A DNA stretch of 64,000 nt. It comes from Escherichia phage vB_EcoM_EC001. Numbering within the stretch: position 1 is the stretch's first letter; each line of letters opens with the position of its first letter. A program made the position numbers and the translations under genes. The DNA lies in sequence record MN445185.1. One strand, written 5' to 3'. Positions 3,374-43,090 of the stretch are shown one piece after another. The notes below the pieces were generated by a model, which saw only the letters and a program-made list of their open reading frames with translations, ran no database searches and was not told the DNA's origin.

Positions 3374-3828
3374 CAGCGAAGTTAGAGGAATTAACACCCG
3401 ACTCATAATCGGATATTTCGACGGTTCGAATCCCTGCCACTTGCTCGCCCTATTTGTGTTATCCTTATCCCGAAGGCATTCGAAATAAGACGCGTATCCA
3501 CACACGGGTCAAGGATAACACGAACCACTTCCGCGGTCACCGTGTCCATTGCCGCCTACCTGCATGGGCTGTCCTCCGACACGGTGACTTCGGGCCAAAT
3601 TACAGACCAGGGCCGTTTGGGTTTTTCTTACGCATCCGTCCAGAGCCACCTCGAGCCCTGGTTTGTTCTCCCTTTTCTGTTCCTAGTTAGCCAACTAAAT
3701 CAATTAAGCCTGGTGCGTTGCCCTGGGAACAGAAAAACTTATTCGGTTACACACCGAACCCACCCACGAGGGATATGTCGTGGACTACCAATAGAAGCAG
3801 CAATAGTAGAAGTAAGAAGGAAAGCAAC

Positions 3829-4650: not shown

Positions 4651-4740
4651 ATTAGCTAACGCCCAGTAGCTATGTTCCTGACGATTAGCCCTCGTCTGAC
4701 CTTGTAAGACCTTGTAGATTTACATGCCAACACCAGGGAA

Positions 4741-4784
4741 GTCCTCACTCTTCGGAGTGAGGACAACTCTTTTATTTTTTTTTG
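4741..4784 (+). terminator. intrinsic terminator (hairpin gtcctcactcttcggagtgaggac plus T-run)
   Basis: Perfect GC-rich stem with TTCG loop followed by a T-run. Confidence 0.6.
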
Positions 4785-4797
4785 TATTCCAAATATA

Positions 4798-4825
4798 CAC
4801 AGATAGATATTACCTAAGTGAGATG
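4798..4825. promoter_or_regulatory. conserved promoter-like motif copy 1 (cacAGATAGATATTACCTAAGTGAGATG)
   Basis: One of 7 dispersed copies; closest match to copy at 58724; sits about 50 nt upstream of ATG 4875. Confidence 0.45.
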
Positions 4826-4874
4826 AGAAAGCCTCATCTGAATTCTCCCAACTCGACTATAAAAGGTATGCATC

Positions 4875-5825
4875 ATGTACAGACCAAGTAATCCTAGCGC
4901 TATTGAAGGATTAAACCAGGATGGCTTCAGCCTCGCAGAAGCAACCCGCATTCGACCTTTCTTACCTCGCAGATTCTTCCCTTTCGGTTCGTTATACAGA
5001 ACGAATTTCGACGCTTGGGAAGCGATACGTGCTGTAAAAGATGCACTACAGTACAAGAACTTCGAATTCCGATTTGTTTTCAAATGGGGCAACGGCGAAT
5101 TGCTCCACCACTTCGGATTCCAACAGAACGAGTTCATTGAGTATACCTCACCTACGTACCACACCAGGTTCTTAAGTATCGAATTCGTTCGCCATTTCGG
5201 CGATGCACTCTTTACGGAACGGGCTACAGATGAAAACCACGGACGTAGGCTGATGTTAACGAACGGCGCACTGCGCATCAAGATGAATCGTTTACGGGAA
5301 GCGTATAACCAGCTTATCAATCCTGAACCGGTAATGTTTCCAACTGTAGCTGATTTGAACATTACACCGCTCCAGTTACCTGTGGATGTGGATAGACCGA
5401 TTCTGGCAATCCACGCTCTCCAGGCAGGCTATGCAAACTGGTATAAAGAGCACAGTCTCCCGAACACCAGATTGAACATCGCACCGTTTGAGTTATGCCT
5501 GTTCTTAACGTTACGCAAACAACTCGAGCCAGAAAACTTAGACTTGCGTTATCTGGCTAAAACAGATAGCGGTAGTTACTACCCAACGACCTGGATGCTA
5601 GCGGCTGTACTACCCGGCGGTGAAATTATCGGTAACCCTGTCACCGATGTTCAACAGTTACCATCACCGTTAGCACCACCGAAGGATTCAATCTATCCAT
5701 ACGCTTCGTGGTACGCGAGCAGTATTGGCGTGAGATGGTTAATGTTACACGTTCCTGAAGAGGTCTATAATTTATTCCCGCATGAGCAATGGCTCCGTGC
5801 GTATGAAAATCGGTTTGGTTGGTAG
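4875..5825 (+). CDS. hypothetical protein
   Basis: 316-aa ORF between promoter-like motif and terminator. Confidence 0.65.
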   Translation: MYRPSNPSAIEGLNQDGFSLAEATRIRPFLPRRFFPFGSLYRTNFDAWEAIRAVKDALQYKNFEFRFVFKWGNGELLHHFGFQQNEFIEYTSPTYHTRFLSIEFVRHFGDALFTERATDENHGRRLMLTNGALRIKMNRLREAYNQLINPEPVMFPTVADLNITPLQLPVDVDRPILAIHALQAGYANWYKEHSLPNTRLNIAPFELCLFLTLRKQLEPENLDLRYLAKTDSGSYYPTTWMLAAVLPGGEIIGNPVTDVQQLPSPLAPPKDSIYPYASWYASSIGVRWLMLHVPEEVYNLFPHEQWLRAYENRFGW

Positions 5826-14597: not shown

Positions 14598-14781
14598 CGG
14601 GAAGTCCACAGAGATGATAACCGCAATCCGTCGCGACCTCGAAGAACGGGGTTGCGTGGATATTGAGTTACATCAGGCAGGCGAAACGGTGCATATCACG
14701 GCATTGGATGCCAAACGGAAACGTAGTATCACTGTGTGGGGTAAACCGTACGCAAGTGATTTCATGGAGACGATAAAATGA
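14584..14781 (+). CDS. hypothetical small protein
   Basis: 65-aa ORF; stop overlaps next start (ATGA). Confidence 0.35.
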   Translation: MYRNSGKSTEMITAIRRDLEERGCVDIELHQAGETVHITALDAKRKRSITVWGKPYASDFMETIK

Positions 14782-15449
14782 GTGATGAACAAGATTTGAA
14801 GTTACCAATGTCAATACCCGAATTGACTTATCTCACCGTCAACCGAGACGATCTCATTAATCAAGTAAGCAAACGCGTAGAGAAAGCCTTTGCTCAGAGT
14901 GGTTATAGTGAAGCGATTCGTAATTTCCGTACACCACTGGCACAATCAGTTACACAACCGCATGGTAAAGGCACTCAGTTATTAGTCGCTGTTCACCCGA
15001 CCTCACCTCTGGCAAAACAGCTGCTTACTGAAATGAACTGGCACTATAAGTGTGTTGAAGAAGTTCAGTCAGCTAATATCGAATGGGCTATGTCGCACAA
15101 GTCTCGCGAAGTGGCGTTAGTCGAATACCTGCGAAAACTACCTTGGGTTGGTGATTCTGCTGTTCTCCGCGATGGCGTAGGTGGGCCGGAAGTCTGGTCA
15201 CCTAATGCGGTGATTGATGTCGATTTCGTGGTTATCGATCCGGGTAGCAATACGCATGTCGTTCGTTTTACGGATGCGAATGTCGCTTCTGTGTGTAAAC
15301 AGTTGGGTATTGCCTACTATCAATGCGGGAAGAAAAAGAAGTCGTCGAGTGTTGAAATTGAGGTGGCGTTTACTGCGGTACAAACCCTAGATCCCGCTGC
15401 GGTTGAACATGCTTTAAACTTCCTCAAGAACCACCCAGACAGCAAATAA
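14778..15449 (+). CDS. hypothetical protein
   Basis: 223-aa ORF ending at bidirectional terminator. Confidence 0.55.
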   Translation: MSDEQDLKLPMSIPELTYLTVNRDDLINQVSKRVEKAFAQSGYSEAIRNFRTPLAQSVTQPHGKGTQLLVAVHPTSPLAKQLLTEMNWHYKCVEEVQSANIEWAMSHKSREVALVEYLRKLPWVGDSAVLRDGVGGPEVWSPNAVIDVDFVVIDPGSNTHVVRFTDANVASVCKQLGIAYYQCGKKKKSSSVEIEVAFTAVQTLDPAAVEHALNFLKNHPDSK

Positions 15450-16805: not shown

Positions 16806-18659
16806 ATGGTAAAAATCGTTGACTCTAACAACAACGCTCAGCAGAACAACACTCAGACTCAAGACACCGCACCACTGGGCGGTCTGGGCAACGAGACTGT
16901 AAAAGTGCAAACTGCTGTGCCGGGTACTTCTACTGTCAGCCAATTCGATAACGCATTTGGCATCCGCAACATCAGCACCTATGCAATGCACTTCACCAAC
17001 CTCCTGGATGAGCTGAAGAAAAGCAACGAATACCTCAACGCATTCCGCTGGGGCACCATCGTCGGCGTGGGTAACGAAATGGGTTCCGCGGCGTATGTCG
17101 CAGGCCAATGGCAGGGCCACTGGCTGTATGGTATCATCTTCTTTGAACGCGGTCAGTCTCTGCGTCTGAAAGAAACTACCAACAACGGCCAGGAAGACTA
17201 CTACACCATCACTGAACTGTTCAACAAAGACGTGCTGGCAGTAGTACAGAAAAACATCATGGAAGCGCATGGTCTGACCAATGCGAACTTCATGATCATC
17301 AACTCCGTACCAGACCTGGGTAAAGTTCTGGATGCTGAGTGGGCACGTACACTGATGGGTCAGATGATGATGGGCATCTTCGGTCGTATCGCAGGCTACC
17401 TGGGTACGCTGAACCTGCGTAAGCATGACCGTTATCAGGCCGCAGTAATGCCGCTGGAAGATGGTGCGGTTGTTGATGCTAACGGCCACGCACAGCGTGC
17501 TGATTTCGCAATCACCGTTGAGCACAGCCCAAGCAACGTAACCGATGCCACTCCGACTCTGCTGGACACCAATCAGGTACAGGTGTATCCGCGTGTATCC
17601 GGTACCGGTTTCGTCAATATGCGTTTCACCGGTCAGAAGCCTGTCGTTAACGGCGTCTACGACCTGAAACAGCTGCAGGCTGAAATCGTAGTAAGTCTGA
17701 TCGATTCTCAAACTGAAGGTGCAATGGCACCGTATGAACGTCAACTGCTGCTGCTGGCTGCATTTGCAGAAATCGCGGCAATCGGTGGCTGGCGTGACCT
17801 GTTTGTGAAACGTCTGAACAAACAAGATCGCAAGTTCTCCCGTGTGGCAGAATACCTGTCCTGGGGTGCTGACGCTCGTCCTGATGTATCCAAAATCGAC
17901 GGTAGCCGTGAAGCTATCGAAGGTTGCCTGGATATGTTCGCACCGCGTGAAGCAGCACTGGTAGTTAGCCATCGTGCCGGTAACGGCCTGGGTGGTCTGT
18001 CTACTTTGCTGTCTGAAATTGCGGTCGGTTACGACAACTCTCTGAAACAGCTGCTCGCTATTCTGAATTCCATGTCCCCGCGTGATCAGAACGGCGAAGT
18101 TGTTGCAGCGACCAGCTTCACTGCAGTATTTGCTTCTGCACTGAAAGCACAGCTGGGCGATGCCTTCAATGGTACCATCCATTGCAGCCACATCGTGAAA
18201 GCAGCCGTACCGACTGTTTCCGGTGTTTACACCGGTACTGCACAGAAACGTAGCTTCCAGGATATGGACCTGATTTCCGTTGTTACCAAACTGGGTGATA
18301 ACGCGAACGACGTCTATAGCTACCTGAACGCACAGTCCTACAGCCACCGTGAACTGAACGAGCGTCAACAGCGTATCTACATGCTGAAACTGGCCGCTTC
18401 TCTGTTCGCATCCAAAGCACCGCAAGCTACCGGTGAATCTCTGGATATGGCTATCAACCCGATCTTCGGTAAATGCCTGCTGGACTTCGTCCGTAACAAC
18501 TGCACCTGGTCTATGACTGGTGTAAATGCCTACAACACGATGGCGACCTCTCTGTTCTTCAACAACGGTGGGGAAGACTTCACGCTGTCTGGCAACGGCC
18601 TGTCTGCAAGCGGTTCCGATTTCGGTCTGGGCGTGACTCTGAGCAACTTCAAACTGTAA
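16806..18659 (+). CDS. abundant protein with host-like codon bias; candidate phage-nucleus shell protein (chimallin-like), function unconfirmed
   Basis: 617-aa ORF with strong preference for ctg/ccg/ggt/cgt/aac codons, two promoter-like motifs upstream, TAAGGAA RBS, low-complexity N-terminal tail, immediately upstream of the RNAP beta-prime N-terminal gene. Confidence is for the CDS, not the function. Confidence 0.7.
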   Translation: MVKIVDSNNNAQQNNTQTQDTAPLGGLGNETVKVQTAVPGTSTVSQFDNAFGIRNISTYAMHFTNLLDELKKSNEYLNAFRWGTIVGVGNEMGSAAYVAGQWQGHWLYGIIFFERGQSLRLKETTNNGQEDYYTITELFNKDVLAVVQKNIMEAHGLTNANFMIINSVPDLGKVLDAEWARTLMGQMMMGIFGRIAGYLGTLNLRKHDRYQAAVMPLEDGAVVDANGHAQRADFAITVEHSPSNVTDATPTLLDTNQVQVYPRVSGTGFVNMRFTGQKPVVNGVYDLKQLQAEIVVSLIDSQTEGAMAPYERQLLLLAAFAEIAAIGGWRDLFVKRLNKQDRKFSRVAEYLSWGADARPDVSKIDGSREAIEGCLDMFAPREAALVVSHRAGNGLGGLSTLLSEIAVGYDNSLKQLLAILNSMSPRDQNGEVVAATSFTAVFASALKAQLGDAFNGTIHCSHIVKAAVPTVSGVYTGTAQKRSFQDMDLISVVTKLGDNANDVYSYLNAQSYSHRELNERQQRIYMLKLAASLFASKAPQATGESLDMAINPIFGKCLLDFVRNNCTWSMTGVNAYNTMATSLFFNNGGEDFTLSGNGLSASGSDFGLGVTLSNFKL

Positions 18660-18741: not shown

Positions 18742-20076
18742 GTGAGAAAGGTACCAAAATTCTACGGAATATCCGGCCGGTTGGTTAGTCAGGATAACTA
18801 TTTGTCCGATTTGCAAATAGAAGCTGCTGCCAAAGGTATTAAACCACCCACTATTATTAACGATGTCGCCGTTAACGGGGATGCGATCGAGGTTGCTGAA
18901 CTTATCGATCGCATGGTACAGAACAGAATCGTTGACGAAGAACTGAACTCTGCACCGATTTGTAGTTTGGATTGTCCGGCACCGATCGCGCATCGTTACA
19001 ATCTCGGTTGTAAGTGTCCGACGTGTGGCTATGTTGTAACTGAACATCGAATTGAATCCGATGTCTGGTTACGTGCACCTGATGAAATGGGTAACTTCGT
19101 CAACCCACGATTCTGGGCAATGTTCAATGCTTTCTTTAATAGCAAGTTGAAGAAGTTTGAACGTAACAAGGTCACTATCGAACGCGGTAATGACTTGATG
19201 ATGTGGATGATTGACCCGTATTACCGTATAGAAGAACCAGACGGTAAACGCGCACATGCTGTGAAACGTGTATTGGAAGAACATGGTTTCGTTCGTGGCT
19301 TGCGCAATCTGGTTGATAACCACGTTAGTATCTTTAACATCCTTACCACGCCAGAAGCCTGGAAGGAAATCTTCGCACCTAATCGGCATAACGCCGCTGA
19401 AGGTGAACGCTTACGTTTACAATGGAAGGAGCTATTCGAAACGCAACGACACGCATTCTTCCCAAGACACTTACCGCTAATCTCCTCTAAACTTATCGTT
19501 ACTGAGGAAGGTCGTCGTGGTGTCATGGTAGACCCAGTGTTCACGGGTGCTATTGATGCGGTGAAAAATATCGCGTTGCTCTATACGCGGCGTAAAGCGA
19601 TCGAACCACGTTTTCTGATTAGTCGTGCTTTGAAAGCGAACCGTCAGTTAACGTACTTCCACATGGACTTCCGTCGTGAGTCTATGGAAGGTAAACCGGG
19701 TGACTATCGTGCGAAATTGGGTTCTACCCACATCCCGTTCGGTGGTCGTGCAACCATCTCACCTATCTCAGAACCACATGATGCCTGGAAGTTAAAAGCA
19801 CCATGGCGTTGGATGGTTGGGTTGATGTCGACCCACATCGAGAACAAACTGCTACGACGCGGTTATTCGTCACGGCAGTGTGAACGTATCGTTGCGAAAG
19901 CGGCAATGCAGTATGACCCGCTTGTAGATGAAATCTTTAAAGAACTGATTCGTGAATCCCCAGGCGGTCTTGGGATCATGGTCATACCGCTACGTAACCC
20001 AACGCTGGTACAGTTGTCTATTCAAACGCTGTACATCGATGAAGTTGTTACCGATGTTAACCAGTGTTCGCTGCGT
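18742..20076 (+). CDS. multisubunit RNA polymerase beta-prime-like subunit, N-terminal fragment, exon 1 (3-prime boundary approximate)
   Basis: GTG start. Zinc-ribbon CSLDCPAPIAHRYNLGCKCPTCG; LRNPTLVQLSIQ...CSL resembles RQPTLHRLGIQ...HPLVC just upstream of the catalytic loop. ORF continues 58 codons into the intron to stop at 20250. Confidence 0.65.
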
Positions 20077-20453
20077 ATCTCTGACCGTGTGATCAAGATG
20101 GCTAACGGTTCGAAAAGAGCCCCATCGGACGGGAAACCTCTGATGCGTATTCTCCTGAAATGCTGGGAAACCCTAAAGCGTATCTACCAGAAATGGGGAC
20201 GAAAGTCTGAAACAACAGATACGATGGCCTACGCTAAACAATACTGCTAACGGTTGTGATAATGGGTAATCAGCAGCGAAGCCTCGTGAGAGGAACGTTC
20301 AACGACTATCGCTGAAATGCGAGTAGGGGTCCCAGTGGACTTCGAAGTGGGAGAACACCTAAGGCGATAGCTATGGTGAAGATATAGTCTGTGCCTTATC
20401 GAGAGATAAGGAGGGTGTCTTAGCACACCTGCTGTATACGGAAACGGTATACG
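20077..20453 (+). ncRNA. group I self-splicing intron (no internal ORF), boundaries +/- about 10 nt
   Basis: Conserved core elements R (GTTCAACGACTA, 20297..20308) and S (AAGATATAGTC, 20379..20389) with complementary gacta/tagtc. Frame changes between flanking coding segments; beta-prime homology stops at CSLR and resumes at DKQDFDGDQ. Confidence 0.75.
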
Positions 20454-20693
20454 GTGGACAAACAGGATTTCGATGGCGACCAGTTCCAGGTACGTTTACC
20501 AGTCGATGAAACTGAGATGAAGTTGGCGCTCCAATTCCGTCCAGATAACGGCTTTATGTCTTCTACTGATGTGGACCGCGTAGAACACGGCATGGTTTTA
20601 CATAACGAGCTAATCAGTATGCAGAACCAGTTCCTTATTGAAGCAGATGAGGATGATGAAGAAGGCATTCCGTTGGAAGCGGTGATGGGCTAA
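20454..20693 (+). CDS. RNA polymerase beta-prime-like N-terminal fragment, exon 2 (catalytic DFDGDQ loop)
   Basis: Begins VDKQDFDGDQFQVRLPVDETEMKLA, matching [23 protein letters not shown]; ends 79 codons later. Confidence 0.65.
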   Translation: MDKQDFDGDQFQVRLPVDETEMKLALQFRPDNGFMSSTDVDRVEHGMVLHNELISMQNQFLIEADEDDEEGIPLEAVMG

Positions 20694-25250: not shown

Positions 25251-26885
25251 ATGAAAATTACGAAGATTAAAGACCGGATGACAATCGAGCATCACGGTCA
25301 AGAGGTCTCATTTATTGGCTTACGTTATCGGAAGGATAACAACGCACCCGACTACATCACTGTTAAAGGTAAACAGATTGCACGCGACAACATTCTCTTC
25401 ATGGAATTACAACGCGTGTGGGATTATTTAACGCCAGACGAACAAGATGAACTGTTCATGGCGTATCTGATGCTGGACGAGCTGGCAAACGAATCGACGG
25501 AAACGCAGCGTAAGCACATGCCGAAGATTGTGCAGACGATTGCGAAGTTCCACAAGGCCGAAGTGTATCGTAAGCTGTATCCCATCGATAAGCTGTGGAT
25601 TCCGCAGAACATGGAAGATACGCACGATGAAATGAACAGTAATTATCCGGAAGCGATGACGTACATTCGTCCGGACTATTACGAGTTGTTGATACTGGTC
25701 CTGATGATTAAACCGTATATTCCGGTGTTCCTTACCATGGGGACGTTCCCGATAGGTAAGAACTTGCCAATCGAAACACATCGGAAAATGGTGTACAATC
25801 TGACATACTGTCTGGAGATGCTTCAAGACACAGAAGTCATGTCTTTACCTGCTATTCCGAAACTGCGTGGGTTCCTACAGACAGTGATGGAAAAGGTAGA
25901 AAAAGAACTGGCAAACAAAGGTACGAACAGCACCAGTTTGTCGGTACTGGCTACGGTGCGGGGCTATGGCACGGATATGATGGAAGATTATATCCTGGCG
26001 TATGCTATTATTAAATTGTTGGCTGTCCGTGAAGTCGGTGGTGAATTACCGGTTGAAATCATGGTTAACAACAATATCGTCACCGGCATGTATTTTCTGG
26101 TTAAACAAGAGATTGAAACAGGTTTTGCAAACAAAATCTCTAACCAGCCGGTGCTGTTGAAAGCGCATCCAGAAAGTGTGGTATTCAATGGCGAAAAGGG
26201 CAAGATAAACGCCATGGATTTGGTGCAGGCACGTTCTCCTGCCCAGATGAAAGAATACGTCCGTACCGAGTACGTATTTAAAGAATACCGCTCTTTCTTG
26301 AAAACAATGCGTCTGGATAATGCCGCTCCAGCAGATGTTAAGTTATTGATTGATTCGCAACTGGCAACACACGACGGTCCTGTCTATACATTGCACGAAT
26401 GGTTAGTCGCATTAGCACTCCATCGTAGCGCGCATTATAAGACGTATACTGAATGTGGACCAGAAGCGTTTCGCTACGGTATGGCGTTGGCGCAGGCAAC
26501 TTATCTCAATTATGGAATGTATGACGTTGCGCAACTGTTAAGTTGCAATATGGTGCGTTCTGAGATGTCTGCCGGTTATGCAGCCGATCCAATTCGATCT
26601 GAACTCAAAGCAGATTTAGATAGATATTATCTTCAGGAGTATCGCAACCCGCGTAATCTCGAACCGCAATCTACACCACGGGAATCACTGACCTTGTTAC
26701 ACAAGGATCACATCAACCCGTATCTGTTCCATCTCAGGGCTACACCAGAAGCAGCTGCGCTGCTGAAGTGTGAGACGGATCAGCCAAACTATATACCTCA
26801 CTTGTCACTGCACAATAGCCTGGCGGAGTTTATGGTGTTGAATGCACGTCGCAAGTTAGAAGAAGTTGAATGGTTTAATTCTTAA
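25251..26885 (+). CDS. hypothetical protein
   Basis: 544-aa ORF downstream of promoter-like motif. Confidence 0.65.
   Translation: MKITKIKDRMTIEHHGQEVSFIGLRYRKDNNAPDYITVKGKQIARDNILFMELQRVWDYLTPDEQDELFMAYLMLDELANESTETQRKHMPKIVQTIAKFHKAEVYRKLYPIDKLWIPQNMEDTHDEMNSNYPEAMTYIRPDYYELLILVLMIKPYIPVFLTMGTFPIGKNLPIETHRKMVYNLTYCLEMLQDTEVMSLPAIPKLRGFLQTVMEKVEKELANKGTNSTSLSVLATVRGYGTDMMEDYILAYAIIKLLAVREVGGELPVEIMVNNNIVTGMYFLVKQEIETGFANKISNQPVLLKAHPESVVFNGEKGKINAMDLVQARSPAQMKEYVRTEYVFKEYRSFLKTMRLDNAAPADVKLLIDSQLATHDGPVYTLHEWLVALALHRSAHYKTYTECGPEAFRYGMALAQATYLNYGMYDVAQLLSCNMVRSEMSAGYAADPIRSELKADLDRYYLQEYRNPRNLEPQSTPRESLTLLHKDHINPYLFHLRATPEAAALLKCETDQPNYIPHLSLHNSLAEFMVLNARRKLEEVEWFNS
26612..26636. promoter_or_regulatory. 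promoter-like motif copy 5, internal to the 3-prime end of CDS 25251..26885
   Basis: AGATTTAGATAGATATTATCTTCAGG about 260 nt upstream of the next gene. Confidence 0.35.
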
Positions 26886-30405: not shown

Positions 30406-32643
30406 ATGAAAACACCAGTCGAACTCATGTCAAGCGTTGCTGACCGTGAGGTGAATATCACTGGCGTATCTGGGGCACGTGCCTCAATGGTGGGTGGACA
30501 TATGAAGTCGGCGGTACCACTGGACAATCCAGATCCGACTATCCATTTTACCGGCGCTGATGTGAACTACCACGATTATTGTTTTAACGATATCGTGGAA
30601 GACAGTGGTACCGTGTGCAGTTACACAACCAAAGAAGGTGTTACTCGTGCAGCTGTTTTTGCACGCTATGGTCGTGAAGGGGATCACGATCCGCTCCAAC
30701 ATGTTATCTTCTTCACGCGCGCAGATTTAACCAACCAGCGCAAAGTGATGATTGATGTAATCGATATCAAGTATTACACCAACCACGATAACATTTTCTC
30801 GTCTAAGAAAGAGGCTACTGGGAAACTTCAGGCGTTGCTGCGCGGACAGACGCAGCACCTGGAAAAAGATGAAATGCTTACCGTACTGCCGGCACAGAAA
30901 GACGGTGAGTTTGTCGATGGGGTCAACCTGCACACTGTGACAATGTCGCACCCGGACATTATCGAGGACTCGTACACCATCTCCGAAACTGCAGCGAAGG
31001 CGATGCACGCTTATGGTTTGCGTGCAATCGACTTTACCTTGCGCGACGACGAGTACCTGCTTGATACGTATGGGACAACGGGTATTGATGGCGTTCGTCG
31101 GCCACAGTACCTGCCCAATAAAGGACAGGCAATTCGCGATGATGGGTTGGTTATAGCCGCGCGTCGTTTCGATAAGCTGTGGGCGGCTATTGACTCGCAC
31201 GTGGGCGAAACACAACATATCTCTCCACACTTCGACCGTTGTGAGTATGTTGATGCTGACCCTGAGCATTACAAAGCGCGTCAGGCCGGCGACTTTGAAA
31301 AGATGGAACGTACCGGTTCTCGTGTCGTTGATATTCAGGTATGGCGGGACGAAACCAAATGCGATCGTGGTGTTAACAATATCGCATGTACCGAAGAGAA
31401 CAAACGCGAGTTAGATCACTACGCGAACGCTTTGAAACGTTTTTACAATGATATCGTGCGGTTCTATTTTGCGATGTCCAAAGACAAGAACATTGTCTGG
31501 TCACCGAAAGCGTTTGAGATCCTTGACAAGGCGTTCTGTTCTGAGACGTATGAAGTCTATAACGACTTCCGTGAAGAGATTGGTCGTGAATACGATGAAG
31601 CCATGCGTAAAGGTGAGTATAACCGTTCTGCTGATAAGAACGTGTTGAACAAACTGGCGCAGCCGGTTCAGCGTGGTCTCTGGGACCCAATTGGTAGCTA
31701 CACGATACGCATCGTGGTACGTTATCCAATCCCAGTTACCGTCTCATCGAAAATCACCGACCGTTCAGGTACAAAAGGTATCGTGGGTGCAGTGCGGCCT
31801 GATGAAGAAATGCCGATTAACGAGTTCGGAGAACGTGTGCATGTCATTCGTTCCATGAACGCCGTAATTCGTCGTTCGACTTATGCTGCGCTGTTCCACA
31901 TGTATTGGTCTGCTGCATCCGAGCAGTTGAAGATGCGGTTGAAACCATTACTTGCCGCCAACCAGGTTGACGAAGCCTGGGAAATCCTGATGGACTATAT
32001 CGATCGCTATAACCCACGCTGGACATTCTATCTCAATGCCAGTCACCCGGATACTGGGTCACGTCTGGAACTCTTTAAAGAGATTTACGACTTCACGATT
32101 CGTATCTGGCTTCCCCACGAATTGAATGCTACCCAGGTAGAAATCTGCCGTGCTCTAGGCGAGTATGCACCACGCAAGTCTAAGCTACTGATTACTAACT
32201 ATCAGGGTGAGAAAGAGTGGACGAAGAACCAGTTCTACGTCGGCATGGTAGAGACTCTGCGCCTGGATAAAACCGGTCGTGAGTTCTCCAGTATCTCGTC
32301 GATGTACACGAACTATTTGGGTTGTATTGATGCATCCAACCAAGGACGTGGTTCATATCCGATTAACCTGAAAGGGTTGAAGTGGGGTGGTCCTTCCGAG
32401 CAGCGTCTTACCGACGGCTTTGGTCCGGGCAACTTCCCCGAAACTCATGACCGCGCTAATAACCCTGCGGTACACCGTGCGATCGTAACGGGGTTGTATA
32501 ACTCGCCAACACCAACCAATCCGGGGGTGCTGGTCGATCGTAAGAAACTGCCAATGGGAGATTCGCAGATTGACAGGATGATACGTAACATCCATCGCTG
32601 TGAAGGTTTTGAATTAGTGCGTCCAATTCGGGAGGATAAATAA
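30406..32643 (+). CDS. multisubunit RNA polymerase beta-like subunit, C-terminal half
   Basis: GARASMVGGHMKSAVPL resembles GANMQRQAVPTL; IIEDSYTISE resembles NFEDSILVSE; DRSGTKGIVGAVRPDEEMPINEFGERVHVIRSMNAVIRRSTYAALFHMY resembles GRHGNKGVIS..PVEDMPY..G.PVDIVLNPLGVPSRMN.GQI.E.HLG. Confidence 0.65.
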   Translation: MKTPVELMSSVADREVNITGVSGARASMVGGHMKSAVPLDNPDPTIHFTGADVNYHDYCFNDIVEDSGTVCSYTTKEGVTRAAVFARYGREGDHDPLQHVIFFTRADLTNQRKVMIDVIDIKYYTNHDNIFSSKKEATGKLQALLRGQTQHLEKDEMLTVLPAQKDGEFVDGVNLHTVTMSHPDIIEDSYTISETAAKAMHAYGLRAIDFTLRDDEYLLDTYGTTGIDGVRRPQYLPNKGQAIRDDGLVIAARRFDKLWAAIDSHVGETQHISPHFDRCEYVDADPEHYKARQAGDFEKMERTGSRVVDIQVWRDETKCDRGVNNIACTEENKRELDHYANALKRFYNDIVRFYFAMSKDKNIVWSPKAFEILDKAFCSETYEVYNDFREEIGREYDEAMRKGEYNRSADKNVLNKLAQPVQRGLWDPIGSYTIRIVVRYPIPVTVSSKITDRSGTKGIVGAVRPDEEMPINEFGERVHVIRSMNAVIRRSTYAALFHMYWSAASEQLKMRLKPLLAANQVDEAWEILMDYIDRYNPRWTFYLNASHPDTGSRLELFKEIYDFTIRIWLPHELNATQVEICRALGEYAPRKSKLLITNYQGEKEWTKNQFYVGMVETLRLDKTGREFSSISSMYTNYLGCIDASNQGRGSYPINLKGLKWGGPSEQRLTDGFGPGNFPETHDRANNPAVHRAIVTGLYNSPTPTNPGVLVDRKKLPMGDSQIDRMIRNIHRCEGFELVRPIREDK

Positions 32644-34748
32644 TGGCGGGTCGTTCTGTACACGTGCGTGATTTGCGTATGCTTAACTCTGATCAGGTGT
32701 GGAAACTACGCGGGCGTTATTACGTGACATTCGACGATGGTAAGTCGTTGGAAATGTCTAGTCGCCACATCAAACTCAGCTGGCCGTATTGGGGTGTGTC
32801 GCGTCTGTATCCGCAGGTGCCCACTCCATCGACCATGGCGTATCGTCCAGGTCAGGTAGCAACAGATGACCTGCATCTGGACTTTATGTCGGAAGCAGCG
32901 GTACTGGCCCGTAAAGCAGGTGTCGACCTTGCTGAAACGCGTTATATCCTGAGTCAACATGTCTACGCCGATGCGTTCAACATGACAGTGAAGAACCTGC
33001 TGTCCTATTGCACGACAATCGACTTTGATACGATGATGGAGATCTACGACCATCCGAACTTCGAACTCATCCGTCAGTGGGAAGTGCAATATCCTACTGG
33101 CTACGATGAAGATGGTCGGGATATGGTTGAAGAAGCGTACAAGCTTATCGAGAAAATCTTCAAAGACCCTGCGCTACGGTATAACCCGGTCGTGATGTCG
33201 GTACTGGATGGTACTGTGAAGATGAACCAGGTACTGCAAGCCTTCGTGCGTGGTAAAACGTCAGAAATTGACTCACGTGTATACACCAATCAGGTGTGGG
33301 AAGGCTTCTTTACCGGAATGCATTCGGTTATTTCGCGTTTGAAAGAATCTGGTGCAACTTCACGTTCCCACTTGTACAACACTGACAAGATTGCCGAAGC
33401 AGAATACGCCTCACGTAAACTGCAGCTGGCAGCAAACGTACTGATGTATTTCACGTACGACGACTGCGGTACAACTCACGCACACCGCTACACGTTTAAG
33501 GATACGCAGCTGGATGAGCGTGCCTATAAAGCGATGGTGGGGATGCGTTATCGTTTAGAAGGTGATAATGGTCCGTGGTTGAGATTTGAGAAAGGTGGAT
33601 ACGCAGACCTGGTTGGCAAACCGCTGGTCTTCCGTAGTGCCATGACCTGTAAAGAGATGGCGAATCAGTCCATCTGTGCGACCTGTATGGGGGATTTGAT
33701 TTATAACCTCTCTGAAGGTACGTCACCAGGTCATCTGGCATCCACGTCCATCTCGGAAAAGGGTACACAGGGAATTCTCTCTACCAAGCACCTTGACTTC
33801 TTGCGTTATCTGCTCAACCTGGTACTCACCCCACGTATGCGTGAGTATATGACCGAATACAAACATAACTCTCTGAAAGGGTTGTGCTTGCTGCCAAAAC
33901 CACAGCGTGGGAATTGGTCAGAATACGAGTTGGTTGTTACCGACAAAGTTTATTCGGAGCTGAGCCAGATTGCGTATCATGAAGATCTCGATGCAATTGA
34001 TGAAACGGCATTACCAGAAATCACCGACTTAACTTTCCAACGTCGTTTAGAAGATGGGCAGATAATCGCTGCGGATTCTATCGATGTGCGAATGGGTGTT
34101 TGTGGGAACTTCTCTAAACCGTTCCTGCACTACTTCTTGAAACAACGAGCGAACATTCGTATCGAGAAGAAGACGGTTCAGATTCCTTTGAAAGGATGGA
34201 ACCCGAAACACCCGGTCCTGGTCTACACCAACCGTTCTGAATCGATGGCGGAGTTCGTAGCCGGCTTAGAAACCAAGCTCCGTTCGATTGCTGCCGATAA
34301 GAACGAAGACATTGTGGAAATCATCAACACAGCCTCGACTGTGAAGCTGAACAAGAAACAAGGTCGTGTGAAACCGGTGACGTTGGTTGAAATGGGTGGT
34401 GCTACAGAGAAACAGTGTACTTATGCGTTGATGGACACGTTTAAGTATATCCAGCGTAAGCTGAGTGGTATACCGATGACGCACATTGCGATTATGTTGG
34501 CGATATCTCGTGTAGAGTCGCCAACCAATCCGTTCCCGGCAGTAGGATTTGACAGTGAGGATTCTACTAATGCCACCGGGAAACGGTTTGTCGATCACAA
34601 CACGCTCATTAGTTTGCGCTCGGCAATTCCGATGTTGTTGTTTGAAGGACAGCAGGGGAATATCGATCGCGTTGGTTTTTATACCGAGTACAAAATCCCG
34701 GCATCGTTGTACGATGACCTAGGAGCCGCTGTGGTAATTGAGTTGTAA
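32643..34748 (+). CDS. multisubunit RNA polymerase beta-prime-like subunit, C-terminal fragment (bridge helix and trigger-loop region)
   Basis: ATG overlaps the beta stop by 1 nt. ISRLKESGATSRSHL resembles the bridge helix ALKTANSGYLTRRL; ASTSISEKGTQGILSTKHLDF resembles SIGEPGTQLTMRTFH. Confidence 0.55.
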   Translation: MAGRSVHVRDLRMLNSDQVWKLRGRYYVTFDDGKSLEMSSRHIKLSWPYWGVSRLYPQVPTPSTMAYRPGQVATDDLHLDFMSEAAVLARKAGVDLAETRYILSQHVYADAFNMTVKNLLSYCTTIDFDTMMEIYDHPNFELIRQWEVQYPTGYDEDGRDMVEEAYKLIEKIFKDPALRYNPVVMSVLDGTVKMNQVLQAFVRGKTSEIDSRVYTNQVWEGFFTGMHSVISRLKESGATSRSHLYNTDKIAEAEYASRKLQLAANVLMYFTYDDCGTTHAHRYTFKDTQLDERAYKAMVGMRYRLEGDNGPWLRFEKGGYADLVGKPLVFRSAMTCKEMANQSICATCMGDLIYNLSEGTSPGHLASTSISEKGTQGILSTKHLDFLRYLLNLVLTPRMREYMTEYKHNSLKGLCLLPKPQRGNWSEYELVVTDKVYSELSQIAYHEDLDAIDETALPEITDLTFQRRLEDGQIIAADSIDVRMGVCGNFSKPFLHYFLKQRANIRIEKKTVQIPLKGWNPKHPVLVYTNRSESMAEFVAGLETKLRSIAADKNEDIVEIINTASTVKLNKKQGRVKPVTLVEMGGATEKQCTYALMDTFKYIQRKLSGIPMTHIAIMLAISRVESPTNPFPAVGFDSEDSTNATGKRFVDHNTLISLRSAIPMLLFEGQQGNIDRVGFYTEYKIPASLYDDLGAAVVIEL

Positions 34749-34794: not shown

Positions 34795-37539
34795 ATGGTA
34801 GAAATTCAAATGACTTACACGAGTATGGGGGTACGGGTTGAAGTCCCTATCCGCCAGGCTGAAAGGGCCATACTCGCGTGGGCCGAAGAGAATATGCACG
34901 CCCCAAAGATGGGCAAGCAACATGGACGAATAACTACGGAACGCGGTGACGCGTACTACGCCCACATTCCGTCTTTAAGGACGTTCATTTTCCATAAAGT
35001 GTTCGCTGAGAAGATTAAACATATCCTCCAACGAGCAGCAATTGAATATGCTTTTCAGTACAAGCTTACAGAGCACCATCCTGAGCGAGGAACACCTTAC
35101 TGCTGTACATTTGATAACTACGGCTTCTCGATGGTAGAAAGCGATCCGGAGTCGCGTTTCTACTATCAGAACGAGGTTGTGGATGCAGCGTCCGATCCAA
35201 ACCGACCACAGACAATCTTTGCCATTCAGACAGGGAGAGGAAAATGCTGTGCTCATGGTACGCGTGTGCGTGTACCGGGTGGTTGGAAGAACATTGAGGA
35301 TATACAGCTAGGTGATTACGTTACGGGGCGTGACGGAAAACCAGCAATGGTCTCTGGAGTGTTCCCACAGGGTGTGGTTGACCTGTATCAGGTGACGTTT
35401 TGGGATGGTAGGAGTGTTGACGTATGTGGCGAGCACTTGTGGCAAAGCTACTACGTTAATACCACCGAGAATCGTCGCTGGGGTGTACGTGATACCCTAG
35501 AGATGAAACGTTTAATTTCGATGCCTAATCCACGGGTATACATCCCATTACCAGAACCAGAGGAAATGCCAGCTAAGGATTTTGTCATTCATCCGTATTT
35601 ACTCGGTATCCTCTTGGGTGATGGCTCCCTATCGATGCCTGGTGTTTTATACACCAAAGGCGATGTGGAGATTCGTGACCGTGTTGCTGAGGTCATGCCC
35701 GCTGGACATGCAATCCATGATTCATCGTACAGCGATGGGATAACGAAGTGCATCTCTTGTCCCGGCGGTGTTAACCTTGTCCGCAGAGAGCTTGAGCGGT
35801 TAGGGTTAATTGGCTGCAGGTCTTGGGAAAAGTTCATACCTGGAGATTACTTCGAAACGTCCATCGAACAACGGTGGGAGTTGTTGCGTGGCTTGATGGA
35901 TACTGACGGTACTGTGGATAAGGATGGTGGTACGCCTTCTTTCTGTTCCACCAGTAAAGAATTGGCTTTAGGTGTTCAGGAACTTGTGCGGTCTTTAGGA
36001 GGGATTGCAACACTACGCGAGAAACGTCCGTTCTTCACACACAACGGCGAACGTCGTGAAGGTCGTTTGGCTTATAACGTCTCCATCCGCCACAAAACAC
36101 CATCGAAACTGTTCCACCTTCCAAGGAAGAAAGAACTGTGTCGTGATAACGGACAATACACCGATATACTGAAACTCCGTGTTAAGTCTATCGAACCCAT
36201 TGGTCGTGATCTTGCCACGTGTATTCGTGTCGAGAACGACGATGCGTTGTTTGTGGTGGACAAGTGGATCGTTACGCACAACACCAAGACCTGTATGAAG
36301 TCGATGGTTAAACGGGGAACCCGTACCGCATTGATTCACCGTCCGTCGTACGTTCCCAAATGGCTGTTTGACGTCTGTGATGATGAAACAGGACTTCGTA
36401 TACTTCGTGACGAGGTGTTAGTTTGTACAGGCGTACAGGCGATTTACGACGCGCTGGAGATGGGTAAGTCGGGAGAGCTAGATAGTCGTGGTATTAAGGT
36501 AATAATCCTCCCCACGGTCTCTCTACAGCGTTTCCTGAAGGAGTACATTAACACTGCTGCGACTAACCCTGTGGACCTGGATACGTTTTATGATGTTCTG
36601 GGTGTGGGTCTGGTGGCGATGGATGAGGTGCACGAGCATTTTCACCTCGTTTACATGGCTGGTATAATGTTGAACCCTCCGGCATCGATAGAGATGTCTG
36701 CAACCCTTAAGCCGGGTAGCAGTAAAGCCTTTATCGCGGAGCGGTATTTAGAACGTTTCCCAATGGAGTACCGAATCAGTATTCCAATCATTCCGGTGGT
36801 TGACGTGAAGGCGTTGTACTATCGACTGGATGATAAGAAGTTTGCGTGGTGGGCGTCGAAGATGACGCCGTATAACCACAAGCTCTTCGAAGGGAAGCTG
36901 ATTAAAGAGAACTTGCATTTAGAATACGCGAACATGATCTGGGATGTGGTTGAGAAATCGTTCCTTAAACGGTATCAACCTGGCCAAAAATGTTTGATAC
37001 TCTTTGCTACGGTAGCGATGTGTGAGTTCTTTACCGAGTATGTGAAAGATAAGTTATCGCGTGACCCTGTATTCCATCCGTTGATGGTGGCGAAATATAA
37101 TGCAGGCGATTCGTATGACGACTTTATCCAAGCAGACTTCTCTATCTCCACACCGGGGAAAGCGGGGACTGCGGTCGATAAACCTGGGTTGGTACACATG
37201 TACATTTCAACCCCGGTAGAAGACCAGCAACTGAACGAACAGATGGCCGGTCGTCCACGTAAGATTCTCCACAACGAATGGGGTGAAATAGACCCAACGG
37301 TGTGGTTATTCCATGCGTATAACGTACCGAAGCATTGCAATTACCTGAATGCCCGCCAGAAATCACTCAAGGATGTCGTATTGTCGTTCCGTATCGCGAC
37401 ATCCCCCTACGTTGTAAGGAAATCACATGCTCACTCCGCCGCGTCCAGCAGAGCCGCTGCCACCCTACATCGGAATGACTTTAGCAAGTTTTCTCGAAAA
37501 CGTTCTAAAGGCGTATCCCGGCGTAGAAGACGTCGCTAA
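34795..37539 (+). CDS. SF2 (DExH-box) helicase interrupted by an intein in the Walker A motif; 3-prime end uncertain
   Basis: Start at ATG with GAGGGG RBS (track ORF 34738). Extein motifs: P-loop GRGK-[intein]-TKT, DEVHEH, SAT, QMAGRPRK. Basic C-terminal tail overlaps the next ORF. Confidence 0.65.
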   Translation: MVEIQMTYTSMGVRVEVPIRQAERAILAWAEENMHAPKMGKQHGRITTERGDAYYAHIPSLRTFIFHKVFAEKIKHILQRAAIEYAFQYKLTEHHPERGTPYCCTFDNYGFSMVESDPESRFYYQNEVVDAASDPNRPQTIFAIQTGRGKCCAHGTRVRVPGGWKNIEDIQLGDYVTGRDGKPAMVSGVFPQGVVDLYQVTFWDGRSVDVCGEHLWQSYYVNTTENRRWGVRDTLEMKRLISMPNPRVYIPLPEPEEMPAKDFVIHPYLLGILLGDGSLSMPGVLYTKGDVEIRDRVAEVMPAGHAIHDSSYSDGITKCISCPGGVNLVRRELERLGLIGCRSWEKFIPGDYFETSIEQRWELLRGLMDTDGTVDKDGGTPSFCSTSKELALGVQELVRSLGGIATLREKRPFFTHNGERREGRLAYNVSIRHKTPSKLFHLPRKKELCRDNGQYTDILKLRVKSIEPIGRDLATCIRVENDDALFVVDKWIVTHNTKTCMKSMVKRGTRTALIHRPSYVPKWLFDVCDDETGLRILRDEVLVCTGVQAIYDALEMGKSGELDSRGIKVIILPTVSLQRFLKEYINTAATNPVDLDTFYDVLGVGLVAMDEVHEHFHLVYMAGIMLNPPASIEMSATLKPGSSKAFIAERYLERFPMEYRISIPIIPVVDVKALYYRLDDKKFAWWASKMTPYNHKLFEGKLIKENLHLEYANMIWDVVEKSFLKRYQPGQKCLILFATVAMCEFFTEYVKDKLSRDPVFHPLMVAKYNAGDSYDDFIQADFSISTPGKAGTAVDKPGLVHMYISTPVEDQQLNEQMAGRPRKILHNEWGEIDPTVWLFHAYNVPKHCNYLNARQKSLKDVVLSFRIATSPYVVRKSHAHSAASSRAAATLHRNDFSKFSRKRSKGVSRRRRRR
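35245..36282 (+). mobile_element. intein (346 aa) with double-motif LAGLIDADG homing endonuclease
   Basis: Begins CCAHGTRVRVPGG...IEDIQLGDYV directly after P-loop GK; contains LLGILLGDGSL and LRGLMDTDGTV; ends VVDKWIVTHN followed by Thr. Predicted spliced P-loop is GRGKTKT. Confidence 0.7.
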
Positions 37540-40923: not shown

Positions 40924-41808
40924 ATGCCCTTTTCACTATGGAACAGAGCCATGATTGATATTTATACCGACTATGCGGCTGTATTGACAGTCAACCGTCA
41001 CGAAGGTCGTGCAGCACCGATGCTAGATTTAGTGACGCTCGGTATGGATTACGGTTACGATGTGGCGTTATCCGATGTTTATAGCAACCCGTTGTCTGAC
41101 CCCGCGGACGAAACTGTCCGTCTGGAATCCATTATCGTGAAGGTAGCGGTTGGATTAGGCAACCGCCTCGGTATCGGACTTAATCCACAAATCGTCTTCC
41201 AGAAACCGAAAGAAACCGTACGTATCCTTCACGGTGTGTTGGAAGCCTTCGAGGAGTTCGAAGACAGTGATGCCCTTTACGGGATTGTCTCCTCTGGTGA
41301 GACACCAGAGTATATCCTGGAGAACATGTGTCGTTATGTTTACGGTGACGAAAACCTGCACTTCGAAGACCTGATTACTGTTGTCAGCCCACGCGTGCTT
41401 ACCGTGATGGAGAACTTCTTAGCAGCAGAGTCGTTGGAAAGCCAGAAACGAAACGGCGACGACGAGCGTCAACAGCGTATCGTCGCTTACTTGCGGTTGT
41501 TCCCTGAGAACCCGTCAGCGTTTGTCTTTATGAATCTGCCTGCTGAGCCAGACTTAACGGTGGTGCAGCAGTCGTTAGAGTTTCGCGTAGAGGACATTAG
41601 CGAAATTGATTTGCTGACGATGTATGCGGTGGGCTTATCGATTATTCCTCATGCGGAGTTTGATGGGGCTTACGGTGACTTAGAAAAGAACCTTGCCCTG
41701 TTGAACGTCGACAACGTCCCGCCTGGAGAAATCTTGCGGAAAGGATTGGAAGCGTTGAAAGTCATATACGCTAGTGGGGACGCGGAGGTAGATGATGAAC
41801 AAGATTGA
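40924..41808 (+). CDS. hypothetical protein (start may be 40951)
   Basis: 294-aa ORF; alternative in-frame ATG at 40951. Confidence 0.5.
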   Translation: MPFSLWNRAMIDIYTDYAAVLTVNRHEGRAAPMLDLVTLGMDYGYDVALSDVYSNPLSDPADETVRLESIIVKVAVGLGNRLGIGLNPQIVFQKPKETVRILHGVLEAFEEFEDSDALYGIVSSGETPEYILENMCRYVYGDENLHFEDLITVVSPRVLTVMENFLAAESLESQKRNGDDERQQRIVAYLRLFPENPSAFVFMNLPAEPDLTVVQQSLEFRVEDISEIDLLTMYAVGLSIIPHAEFDGAYGDLEKNLALLNVDNVPPGEILRKGLEALKVIYASGDAEVDDEQD

Positions 41809-43090
41809 CTATCTGGTCGCTGCGTGTAAAGCAGAAGCTTGGCGTAGACTGGTGTGGCGTATTGCGGTTTTCAACGTGGCAATCTTTAATGAAAAAGGTG
41901 AGCCACCTGAGCAATACGACCTGAACTATATTGACGGCTTGCCCCACTACTGGGAAAACGAAGAAATTAAATGGGTGCCGATTGAAGGGTGCAAAAAAGA
42001 TGAAGAGCTGTTCGTGCCAGAAGAGCAGTTTGAATTGCGTCCTGAGATGTACCCAGGTTTAGCTGGTCCCATTCCGACTACCGTGGGTCGCTATGTCTTT
42101 AACTGGATTGCTATCTATTACGCTTTCGGTACCCGTCTCCCGTATCTGGCAGAGTCTCGTGACCCACTAGCCTACCGTAAAGAGATGTATGAGCGTTGTG
42201 TGGAATATGATGACAGCGATCCAGACAACGAAGACGCGATTCGACCGTACATGATAGGACGCTTTGTAGGGGGTCTACACGAGCTTGCTCCGTTGTGTCG
42301 TGGGATTGCCCCAACAGGAACTATTAGAAGCCTTACAACGCATCCTGACGCGTATAAGGTACGAGATGCGTTGCTGTTGAAGCACAAAGACGAACTGGAT
42401 AACCCTGCGGTTATCGTTATGATTGAAAAAGCTCTCGATGAACTTGATAAAGAGTGGTTGAGTGGCGACCAGTCCGTTGAGTTCTACAGCTCTCCTAAAG
42501 CGCGTATGCGTCGCCGTAAGCTGATGCTGATGTACGGTATTCAGACCGCTTTTAAAGAAGGTGCAGATTTTACCTTAATCCCAACGAGCCTGATGGAAGT
42601 TGATCAGACCGGGATGAAGTATCTGGTAGAGAAATTCAATGATACGCGAGAAGGTTCCTTCATGCGTGGTGCAGAAACTGCCAAGGGCGGGGAGCAAGTA
42701 CGTATCATCCAGATGATCTTCCAGAACCACAAAATCGTGCCTGGTGATTGCGGGACAAAACTGACACATGCAGTTGTAATTAACCAGTATAACTACAAGC
42801 GTTATGTTGGCATGAACGCGATGGTTAACGGTAAAGTTACCCAACTCACCGAAGAGTATTTGAAAACGCAATTTGGTAAAGTTGTTCGACTCCGCCGACC
42901 CATCTTATGTCAGCAAGGTCACGTAGACTGTTGTGCGGCGTGCTCCTCTGCACACAAAGCAGAAGAGCCACGGGCAATCGCTGCGGATATCTCTTCCGGC
43001 TTCTCGAACGTTATGACCACTGCAATGGGTGCGATGCACGGTCGTGAAACCGTGGTTAAAGAGTACATCCCTAAATTCCACATCACCTAA
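41792..43090 (+). CDS. hypothetical protein
   Basis: 432-aa ORF overlapping previous gene end. Confidence 0.55.
   Translation: MMNKIDYLVAACKAEAWRRLVWRIAVFNVAIFNEKGEPPEQYDLNYIDGLPHYWENEEIKWVPIEGCKKDEELFVPEEQFELRPEMYPGLAGPIPTTVGRYVFNWIAIYYAFGTRLPYLAESRDPLAYRKEMYERCVEYDDSDPDNEDAIRPYMIGRFVGGLHELAPLCRGIAPTGTIRSLTTHPDAYKVRDALLLKHKDELDNPAVIVMIEKALDELDKEWLSGDQSVEFYSSPKARMRRRKLMLMYGIQTAFKEGADFTLIPTSLMEVDQTGMKYLVEKFNDTREGSFMRGAETAKGGEQVRIIQMIFQNHKIVPGDCGTKLTHAVVINQYNYKRYVGMNAMVNGKVTQLTEEYLKTQFGKVVRLRRPILCQQGHVDCCAACSSAHKAEEPRAIAADISSGFSNVMTTAMGAMHGRETVVKEYIPKFHIT

Follow-up and report, generated by a model that had tools for sequence, protein, structure and literature searches.

The split RNA polymerase (RNAP) genes of phiKZ-like jumbo phages, the corresponding assignments in Salmonella phage SPN3US and group I introns in such RNAP genes have all been published. 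The closest enzyme of solved structure is the non-virion RNAP (nvRNAP) of phiKZ (PDB 7OGP), which is built of five pieces (gp55/56.1, gp68, gp71-73, gp74 and gp123). In this structure gp55 has the DFDGD motif, gp71-73 the lysines K386 and K394, and gp74 the bridge helix, the trigger loop and a Zn site (PMC8287921). Here we analyze a stretch of 64,000 nucleotides (nt) from Escherichia phage vB_EcoM_EC001 (MN445185.1), referred to below as the window. Very probably, the window encodes four of the five nvRNAP subunits, and the gene for one of them, the N-terminal part of beta-prime (beta-prime N), is interrupted by a group I intron that has no open reading frame (ORF) of its own and is predicted to be spliced out.

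Introns have been described in the chimallivirus RNAP genes of phiKZ (gp56, gp72, gp179), PhiPA3 (gp210) and 201phi2-1 (gp273/274). According to PMC10914365 and PMC11512511, the phiKZ gp55/gp56/gp56.1 intron has been predicted since 2002. PhiPA3 gp210 is an active HNH nicking endonuclease that was shown to harm a competitor (Birkholz et al. 2024, PMC11620839). Its intron, in the genes of the virion RNAP (gp211/209), is likewise a group I intron in a chimallivirus RNAP gene, present in some relatives and absent from others, but it occupies another site, in virion RNAP beta, whereas the one described here lies in nvRNAP beta-prime N and, having no endonuclease, cannot act like gp210 on its own. 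The T4 td, nrdB and sunY introns, of subgroup IA2, are small, interrupt essential genes at conserved active-site codons, have P7.1/P7.2 extensions and carry their endonuclease ORF in P6 or P9. The intron of the window shares with them a small ribozyme placed at conserved active-site codons and the P7.1/P7.2 elements. It differs in that its relatives bear the endonuclease ORF in loop L1, closed by a long stem, and in that its first in-frame stop codon comes 141 nt into the intron and not near the 5' splice site. A literature search found no paper mentioning an intron in Seoulvirus (the paper on phage Lh1B mentions none) and no paper linking DFDGD to phage group I introns. The polymerase set is a known one; the intron is a new, unannotated member of the known class of jumbo-phage RNAP introns.

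All ORF coordinates in the first 45 kb of the window equal those of Escherichia phage vB_EcoM_Lh1B (Lh1B, OK428535), with which the window is collinear, without indels, at 98.2% identity, the substitutions falling mainly at third codon positions. The polymerase region is 98-99% identical to those of Salmonella phages SEGD1 and SPN3US, Proteus phage 7 and some 30 other Seoulvirus genomes. On the strength of this collinearity, ORF agreement and identity, we place the window, by sequence, in a Seoulvirus close to SPN3US, itself a phiKZ-related jumbo phage, and take it to be the left 64 kb of such a genome. The orthologues of the SPN3US polymerase proteins gp23, gp30, gp34, gp35 and gp77 are 98-99% identical in DNA and alike in order and spacing; the C-terminal subunits of beta (beta C) and beta-prime (beta-prime C) have the same lengths in both phages, and beta-prime N of SPN3US is one residue apart from the spliced product of the window. 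Unlike the window, SPN3US has no 356-nt group I intron in its beta-prime N gene (gp23) and no intein in its helicase (gp36). The phiKZ nvRNAP is more remote, with protein identities of about 19-30% and a different gene order, but it has the same five-piece architecture with the same split points, and each of the four window proteins matches the corresponding chain. DFDGD, the double-psi beta-barrel (DPBB) bearing the lysines, the bridge helix, the trigger loop and the Zn cysteines are common to both. The beta C gene of phiKZ (gp71-73) contains an intron (gp72), whereas that of the window does not.

Insertion of a group I intron before the catalytic loop of beta-prime N

The ORF that begins with GTG at position 18742 (plus strand) terminates at 20250, and the codons for DFDGDQ, the catalytic Mg-binding loop, follow from 20466 in another frame, because the intervening 356 nt amount to 3n+2. 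SPN3US gp23 (531 amino acids, aa) is an uninterrupted orthologue, and its alignment with the window reveals a clean 356-nt insertion and sets the end of the upstream exon at 20109. Exon 1 (18742..20109, 456 codons) encodes the Zn ribbon, the clamp and the first part of the DPBB, and its 3' end reads ...VIKMANG (AAC GGT). The intron (20110..20465, plus strand) is delimited by the indel relative to SPN3US and supported by the Rfam model RF00028 and by covariation. Exon 2 (20466..20693, 75 codons plus stop, plus strand) opens with GAT TTC GAT GGC GAC CAG, the codons for DFDGDQ. The intron is located between the Gly and the first Asp codons (N-G|D-F-D-G-D-Q), ahead of the first catalytic aspartate. 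It is preceded by U and its last base is G (the omega-G, G20465). An alternative junction, with exon 1 ending at 20108 and the intron ending in A, yields the same protein; it was rejected, having neither U at -1 nor a terminal G. No reading frame within the intron is longer than the 47-codon read-through from exon 1, and beyond this read-through no homing endonuclease ORF was found.

Joining 18742-20109 to 20466-20693 gives a 531-aa protein that is identical to SPN3US gp23 at 530 of 531 positions (Y431F is the only change), and the predicted peptide spanning its junction (...VIKMANG-DFDGDQFQVR) is MANGDFDGDQFQVR. The spliced product extends from the zinc ribbon (CSLDC...CKCPTC) through DFDGDQ and ends some 70 residues beyond it. 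It matches phiKZ gp55 (7ogp_A, E-value 1.4e-38) and also residues 329-480 of E. coli beta-prime, and the exon 1 ORF matches phrog_2987 (5e-155). An initial annotation of the window had assigned 18742..20693 to the part of beta-prime that runs from the zinc ribbon to DFDGDQ. The 531-aa spliced product bears out this content, but the interval is not the single continuous coding region that was assumed, since the 356-nt intron lies inside it.

Structure and conservation of the ribozyme

The intron scores 69.4 bits (E = 1.6e-15) with the Rfam covariance model RF00028, for which the curated gathering cut-off is 50 bits; the match covers the full length of the model (1-253) and occurs on the plus strand only. 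It is an IA2-like intron with P7.1/P7.2 and P9.1/P9.2. From the window sequence, guided by the Rfam alignment, we built a structure model of 90 pairs in 22 helices. P1 is GGU|UC[GAAAA]GAGCC: G20107-C20121, G20108-C20120, U20109.G20119, U20110-A20118 and C20111-G20117 pair beneath the loop GAAAA, and the splice-site U20109 wobbles with G20119 of the guide sequence. P2 is capped by a GAAA loop, and three more GNRA-type loops are found in P3 to P6a (P5b, P5c and P6a). The P3/P7 pseudoknot, P7.1/P7.2, P8, P9, P9.1, P9.2 and P9.0 make up the remainder. No core helix is disrupted, and GUUCAACGACUA and GAAGAUAUAGUC, both in the core, agree with the Rfam consensus. The P1 proposed by Rfam (20094-20102 with 20119-27) leaves the splice-site U in a loop and includes several non-pairs, and was rejected; GGUUC/GAGCC was preferred because it agrees with the U.G rule and is backed by both the free-energy fold and the covariation. 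The minimum-free-energy fold (z = -3.9) independently finds P1, P2, P5a-c, P7.2, P9 and P9.2.

Covariation was assessed on the aligned cores of eight homologous introns (Seoulvirus, Elvirus, Phikzvirus, Aphroditevirus and Raoultella/Klebsiella phages). Under the model 86.9% of the alignment cells pair over seven distinct homologues, versus 37-46% when partners are slid by 1-3 columns, an excess that is in part expected because the structure came from the window sequence; the number of compensatory pairs is more telling, as 50 pairs differ on both sides versus 12-20 in the slid controls. The observed pairing values were reached by none of 500 shuffles. Compensatory changes include five pairs in P3 and one in P7, and the covariation supports P2 to P9.2. 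All six related introns examined pass the Rfam gathering score.

Predicted splicing and its alternatives

By homology with phiKZ, the nvRNAP genes would be transcribed early by the injected virion RNAP (PMC8287921, PMC7598289). In the beta-prime N pre-mRNA, guanosine would attack after U20109, held in P1 by G20119, and the exons would be ligated after the omega-G at 20465, so that self-splicing joins the DPBB strands to the DFDGD loop. Full-length, catalytically competent beta-prime N would be made only after excision of the ribozyme; the unspliced message would give a 502-aa protein without the Mg-binding aspartates. Carriers of the intron allele are viable isolates, and we therefore infer that splicing must be efficient.

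Several observations weigh against this account. Splicing in this phage is a prediction from sequence; ribosomes on the 47-codon read-through could, in a coupled bacterial system, disturb folding of the ribozyme; the exon part of P1 is only 3 bp; and no convincing P10 was found in the window's intron. The match of the gp68-like subunit (below) is distant (25 bits, about 19% identity). As to the homologous introns of phiKZ, one long-read transcriptome study reported that it saw no sign of their splicing (PMC10914365). RNA-seq evidence for introns in phiKZ gp55 and gp180 is cited in PMC11512511.

Two alternatives concern the 356 nt themselves. Beta-prime N could be truly split into two polypeptides, of about 502 aa (18742-20250) and about 79 aa (20454-20693), with ordinary intergenic DNA as spacer. 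This is how the gene appears in the GenBank records of Lh1B, SPLA3 and phage 1252, which annotate two coding sequences; a GTG at 20454 (ATG in Lh1B) is in frame with exon 2, and extra splits of RNAP subunits are usual in these phages. We nevertheless consider a genuine split very unlikely. The spacer is a complete group I intron by its score and strong covariation, and excising exactly 356 nt restores a frame whose product is 530/531 identical to that of the uninterrupted SPN3US gene. A cut at this point would part the DPBB strands that flank DFDGD in phiKZ gp55 (PMC8287921), and neither the 47 read-through codons nor the 4 codons before DFDGD have a counterpart in intron-less orthologues.

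Alternatively, the intron may have decayed and no longer splice, leaving beta-prime N a pseudogene or dependent on a trans-acting helper. Loss of the endonuclease ORF, the short exon part of P1, the unclear P10 and the failure of one study to see splicing of the phiKZ introns (PMC10914365) would fit such decay. It is nonetheless barely plausible, given that this form recurs at ≥98% identity in at least five plaque-forming phages of independent isolation, that the gene holds the only DFDGD loop of an enzyme believed essential, and that all core helices are intact in an intron differing from that of Lh1B at 1 of 356 positions, against 1.8% nearby. We thus retain a self-splicing intron in a single beta-prime N gene as the preferred interpretation.

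Other subunits of the non-virion polymerase

Two adjacent genes on the plus strand encode beta C (30406..32643, 745 aa; orthologous to SPN3US gp34 and phiKZ gp71-73) and beta-prime C (32643..34748, 701 aa; orthologous to SPN3US gp35 and phiKZ gp74), with the start codon of the latter overlapping the stop codon of the former by 1 nt. Beta C matches phrog_3295 'RNA polymerase beta subunit' (6e-268) and phiKZ gp71-73 (7ogp_C, 1.8e-29), passes the gathering score of Pfam Rpb2_6 (Rpb2 domain 6; 24.1 bits versus 23.4) and has a weak match to residues 801-926 of cyanobacterial beta. It contains an SGTKGIVG motif. The translation of its second DPBB includes ITDRSGTKGIVG, which, going by the E. coli beta sequence, we take to be the lysine-bearing DPBB motif.

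Beta-prime C matches phrog_3015 (1e-240) and phiKZ gp74 (7ogp_D, 8.9e-39). Its segment from bridge helix to trigger loop matches gp74 residues 233-391 (2.4e-19) and aligns weakly with residues 799-829 and 892-949 of bacterial beta-prime. In phiKZ, gp74 residues 233-391 span the bridge helix (L242-Y279), the Zn cysteines and the trigger loop (PMC8287921); bridge helix, Zn site and trigger loop are all present in beta-prime C of the window. Its SPN3US orthologue gp35 has been named the nvRNAP beta-prime C-terminal subunit (PMC5105663). Beta is divided such that the C piece, with the lysine-bearing DPBB, is in the window and the N piece elsewhere. The break in beta-prime comes after the DPBB; the N piece has DFDGD, and the C piece has both bridge helix and trigger loop.

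The ORF at 25251..26885 (plus strand), an orthologue of SPN3US gp30, is a distant homologue of phiKZ gp68, the sigma-like fifth nvRNAP subunit. It matches 7ogp_B (PHIKZ068, E = 1.5e-5) over about 390 residues (~47-435 against 41-413), and tblastn finds phiKZ-like genes annotated 'non-virion DNA-dependent RNA polymerase subunit' (E ~ 4e-7). According to a review, every jumbo phage that encodes an RNAP of this kind has a gp68 homologue (PMC7598289). SPN3US gp78, which adjoins the gene for the N-terminal part of beta (beta N), was considered for the same role and rejected, as it has no PDB match and gp30 fits instead. Orthologues of the 25251-26885 ORF are annotated 'hypothetical protein' in all Seoulvirus records. 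The beta N orthologue of SPN3US is gp77 (73.8-75.5 kb), which matches phiKZ gp123 (3e-20); beta N is located about 10 kb past the end of the window.

The best structure matches to phiKZ nvRNAP chains and the SPN3US assignments together lead us to assign these genes to the non-virion set. Absence from virions, early expression and transcription of middle and late genes would follow from SPN3US proteomics (PMC5105663) and phiKZ biochemistry (PMC8287921, PMC7598289). In the assembled enzyme, beta-prime N would contribute the clamp with the Zn ribbon and the Mg-binding DPBB, beta C the second DPBB with the conserved lysines, and beta-prime C the bridge helix, trigger loop and Zn site, and the gp68-like protein would take the place of sigma. 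The five polypeptides would form an enzyme without alpha and omega, requiring the gp68-like protein for promoter binding and transcribing middle and late genes inside the phage nucleus without the host polymerase.

The virion RNAP set of SPN3US comprises gp42, gp218, gp240, gp241 and gp244 (virion proteomics, PMC5105663). An orthologue of gp42, the virion RNAP beta-prime 'middle' subunit, is encoded at 41795-43090 (plus strand; phrog_2962, 8e-176; no match in PDB), and by sequence the window thus holds pieces of both phage polymerases. That the fragments described above are the virion-packaged RNAP, injected with the DNA for early-gene transcription, is hardly credible: both enzymes are built of split beta and beta-prime fragments and a true virion fragment does lie in the window, but every fragment has a phiKZ non-virion chain as its best solved-structure match, the virion-type fragment falls in another PHROG and finds no counterpart in PDB, and the SPN3US virion set consists of other proteins, gp35 being named nvRNAP beta-prime C (PMC5105663).

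The initial annotation had proposed a split multisubunit RNAP of the phiKZ type from three fragments, and all three have phiKZ nvRNAP chains as their best matches. The ORFs it gave for the C-terminal half of beta (30406..32643) and for beta-prime with bridge helix and trigger loop (32643..34748) are exact. Pfam, PHROG and PDB matches (phrog_3295, Rpb2_6 and gp71-73; phrog_3015 and gp74 residues 233-391) place the fragments in beta and beta-prime, and comparison with the phiKZ sets assigns the genes to the non-virion one (7ogp chains; PMC5105663). It was also right that the window has no N-terminal half of beta. Its statement that no sigma-like factor is visible does not stand, given the gp68 match of 25251-26885, and it was incomplete in missing the intron in beta-prime N, the gp68-like subunit and the virion beta-prime fragment at 41795-43090.

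Distribution of the intron in Seoulvirus

The ORF-less intron is found at ≥98% identity in phages 1252, JN03, Lh1B, SPLA3 and SPLA5c. At the same site, Proteus phage 7 and SaP7 have an intron with a 79%-identical core. In Proteus phage 7 this intron is 1404 nt long and contains a 286-aa HNH_3/NUMOD1 ORF; SaP7 was judged to have the endonuclease-bearing form from the 79% core match only. SPN3US, SEGD1, SPLA1a and the SPFM series lack the intron. The site is thus polymorphic, with seven intron-plus versus more than 25 intron-less Seoulvirus records. In the record of Salmonella phage SPFM1 (LR535901) the beta-prime N gene appears broken into 60-nt blocks whose order is reversed, which looks like an artefact of the sequence record and not biology; SPFM1 was left out of the comparisons for this scrambling. 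Other SPFM records give fragmented matches to the beta-prime N gene.

Of the 356 intron positions, 1 differs from Lh1B, while the 45 kb around it diverge by 1.8%, a contrast suggestive of constraint or recent spread. Among nine Seoulvirus alleles, the synonymous sites -7, -4 and -1 (GCT AAC GGT versus GCA AAT GGA) are completely linked to the intron, and other flanking polymorphisms show no such segregation. SPLA1a (intron-minus) and SPLA3 (intron-plus) are otherwise nearly identical around the site. Such linkage is what a very short homing co-conversion tract, or precise recombinational gain or loss, would leave, with the caveat for the -1 marker that U at this position is needed for P1 regardless. 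The intron may be regarded as a mobile-element remnant or passenger. As the window's copy has no endonuclease, it would spread only by ordinary recombination or with the endonuclease of a co-infecting relative.

Nearly identical intron-plus, intron-minus and endonuclease-plus alleles are thus available in culturable phages of Salmonella, E. coli and Proteus. They offer a ready system for studying intron homing and phage-phage competition of the kind shown for PhiPA3 and phiKZ; here the site concerned is the catalytic centre of an essential enzyme. The same alleles could be used to probe whether the phage nucleus relaxes the constraints on intron folding.

Related introns at the NADFDGD codons

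A tblastn search for chimallivirus beta-prime N genes returned 293 positive records. The phiKZ gp55/gp56/gp56.1 intron interrupts the orthologous gene within the NADFDGD codons; it has a homologous core that aligns with the others in the covariation alignment and scores 75.6 bits with Rfam. It lies one codon upstream of the window's intron (N|ADFDGD versus NG|DFDGD), uses the guide GUU instead of GCC, and encodes a 334-aa HNH/NUMOD1/NUMOD4 endonuclease, whereas the window's intron is ORF-less. The introns of EL, Klebsiella phage phiKp_32 and phiKZ have ORFs comparable to that of Proteus phage 7, of the HNH_3 plus NUMOD1 type. In these relatives the endonuclease ORF is situated in loop L1, between the 5' splice site and the guide sequence, and L1 is closed by a long-range stem of 9 to about 19 bp.

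The homologous introns are shifted by -3, 0 or +3 nt within the NADFDGD codons, each shift being accompanied by a matching 3-nt change of the guide. In phiKZ the intron interrupts N|A after AAU, with guide GUU (positions 3643-5012 of the extracted locus L013). In the window and Proteus phage 7 it interrupts G|D after GGU, with guide GCC. The introns of EL (1384-2800 of locus L010) and of the Raoultella/Klebsiella phages occupy the same position as that of the window, here A|D, after GCU, with guide GGC. In Vibrio phage 2 TSL-2019 and Photobacterium phage PDCC-1 the junction is D|F after GAU, with guide GUC (2455-2846 of loci L006 and L012). In the Vibrio intron the U/G rule also allows a junction after GCT, but this junction was rejected, since it would give NAMFDGD and misfits the guide GUC.

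Raoultella phage VB_ZK_P1 and Klebsiella phage phiKp_32 have a second intervening sequence of 311 nt after DFDG, 12 nt downstream of the first (region 2848-3170 of loci L005 and L009, respectively). Between the two lies a 12-nt micro-exon, GATTTTGACGGT, encoding DFDG. The second sequence follows U, ends in G and has a P1-like element, GGU|AA[ACGUA]UUGCC; in the Raoultella phage it has no match in Rfam even at E ≤ 1, and we treat it as a putative intron only. Aeromonas phages CF8, ZPAH34 and AhC3_1 share a 95-nt portion of it.

It is conceivable, though we hold it with less than even confidence, that the 21 nt encoding NADFDGD are a multi-site hotspot for one group I ribozyme family, which would have reached four positions by 3-nt re-tuning of its guide. 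The proposed positions are N|A (phiKZ), A/G|D (the window, EL, Proteus phage 7 and the Raoultella/Klebsiella phages), D|F (Vibrio/Photobacterium) and, putatively, the downstream G|D of the Raoultella/Klebsiella phages. The phage nucleus parts transcription from translation, which may make a long in-frame read-through tolerable and let such introns accumulate in these genomes. No paper on a multi-site intron pattern at NADFDGD was found in a literature search.

Neighbouring elements

A second intervening element is present in the helicase gene (34795-37539), where an intein of 346 aa with a LAGLIDADG homing endonuclease occupies 35245-36282. It starts with Cys, ends with ...VTHN, is followed by Thr, and sits in the Walker A loop of the helicase (GRGK|T). 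The intein is absent from SPN3US gp36 (568 aa), and the flanking extein is more diverged than the rest of the gene. In GenBank the intein-bearing gene is a plain 914-aa helicase. The annotation of at least five deposited genomes is affected: the catalytic subunit split by the intron is entered there as two unrelated genes, the sigma-like subunit bears the label 'hypothetical', and the helicase figures as one protein of 914 aa, with the intein unmentioned.

Between 37501 and 42500 the divergence from Lh1B is raised several-fold (165 and 80 differences per 2.5 kb versus roughly 20-60 elsewhere), which suggests a recombinant patch. Relative to SPN3US the window has insertions at 989-1556 (ORF 985-1560, 191 aa, no family match) and at 14780-15435 (ORF 14778-15449, 223 aa, phrog_14096 of unknown function); both ORFs may represent further genes of a mobile or accessory kind.

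Directly upstream of beta-prime N, the ORF 16806-18659 (plus strand) encodes a 617-aa protein of phrog_8316, of unknown function. Its position is that of the nuclear-shell protein in phiKZ (gp54, chimallin) and Vibrio phage 2 TSL-2019; the likeness to chimallin is one of position only, with no BLASTP similarity to phiKZ gp54 and no PDB or Pfam match. ARAGORN and Rfam both identify a tRNA-Trp (CCA) at 2141-2216 (plus strand). A weak tRNA-like match at 3301-3370 (plus strand, 33.6 bits) is given by Rfam only; in SPN3US it is annotated as 'tRNA-OTHER'.

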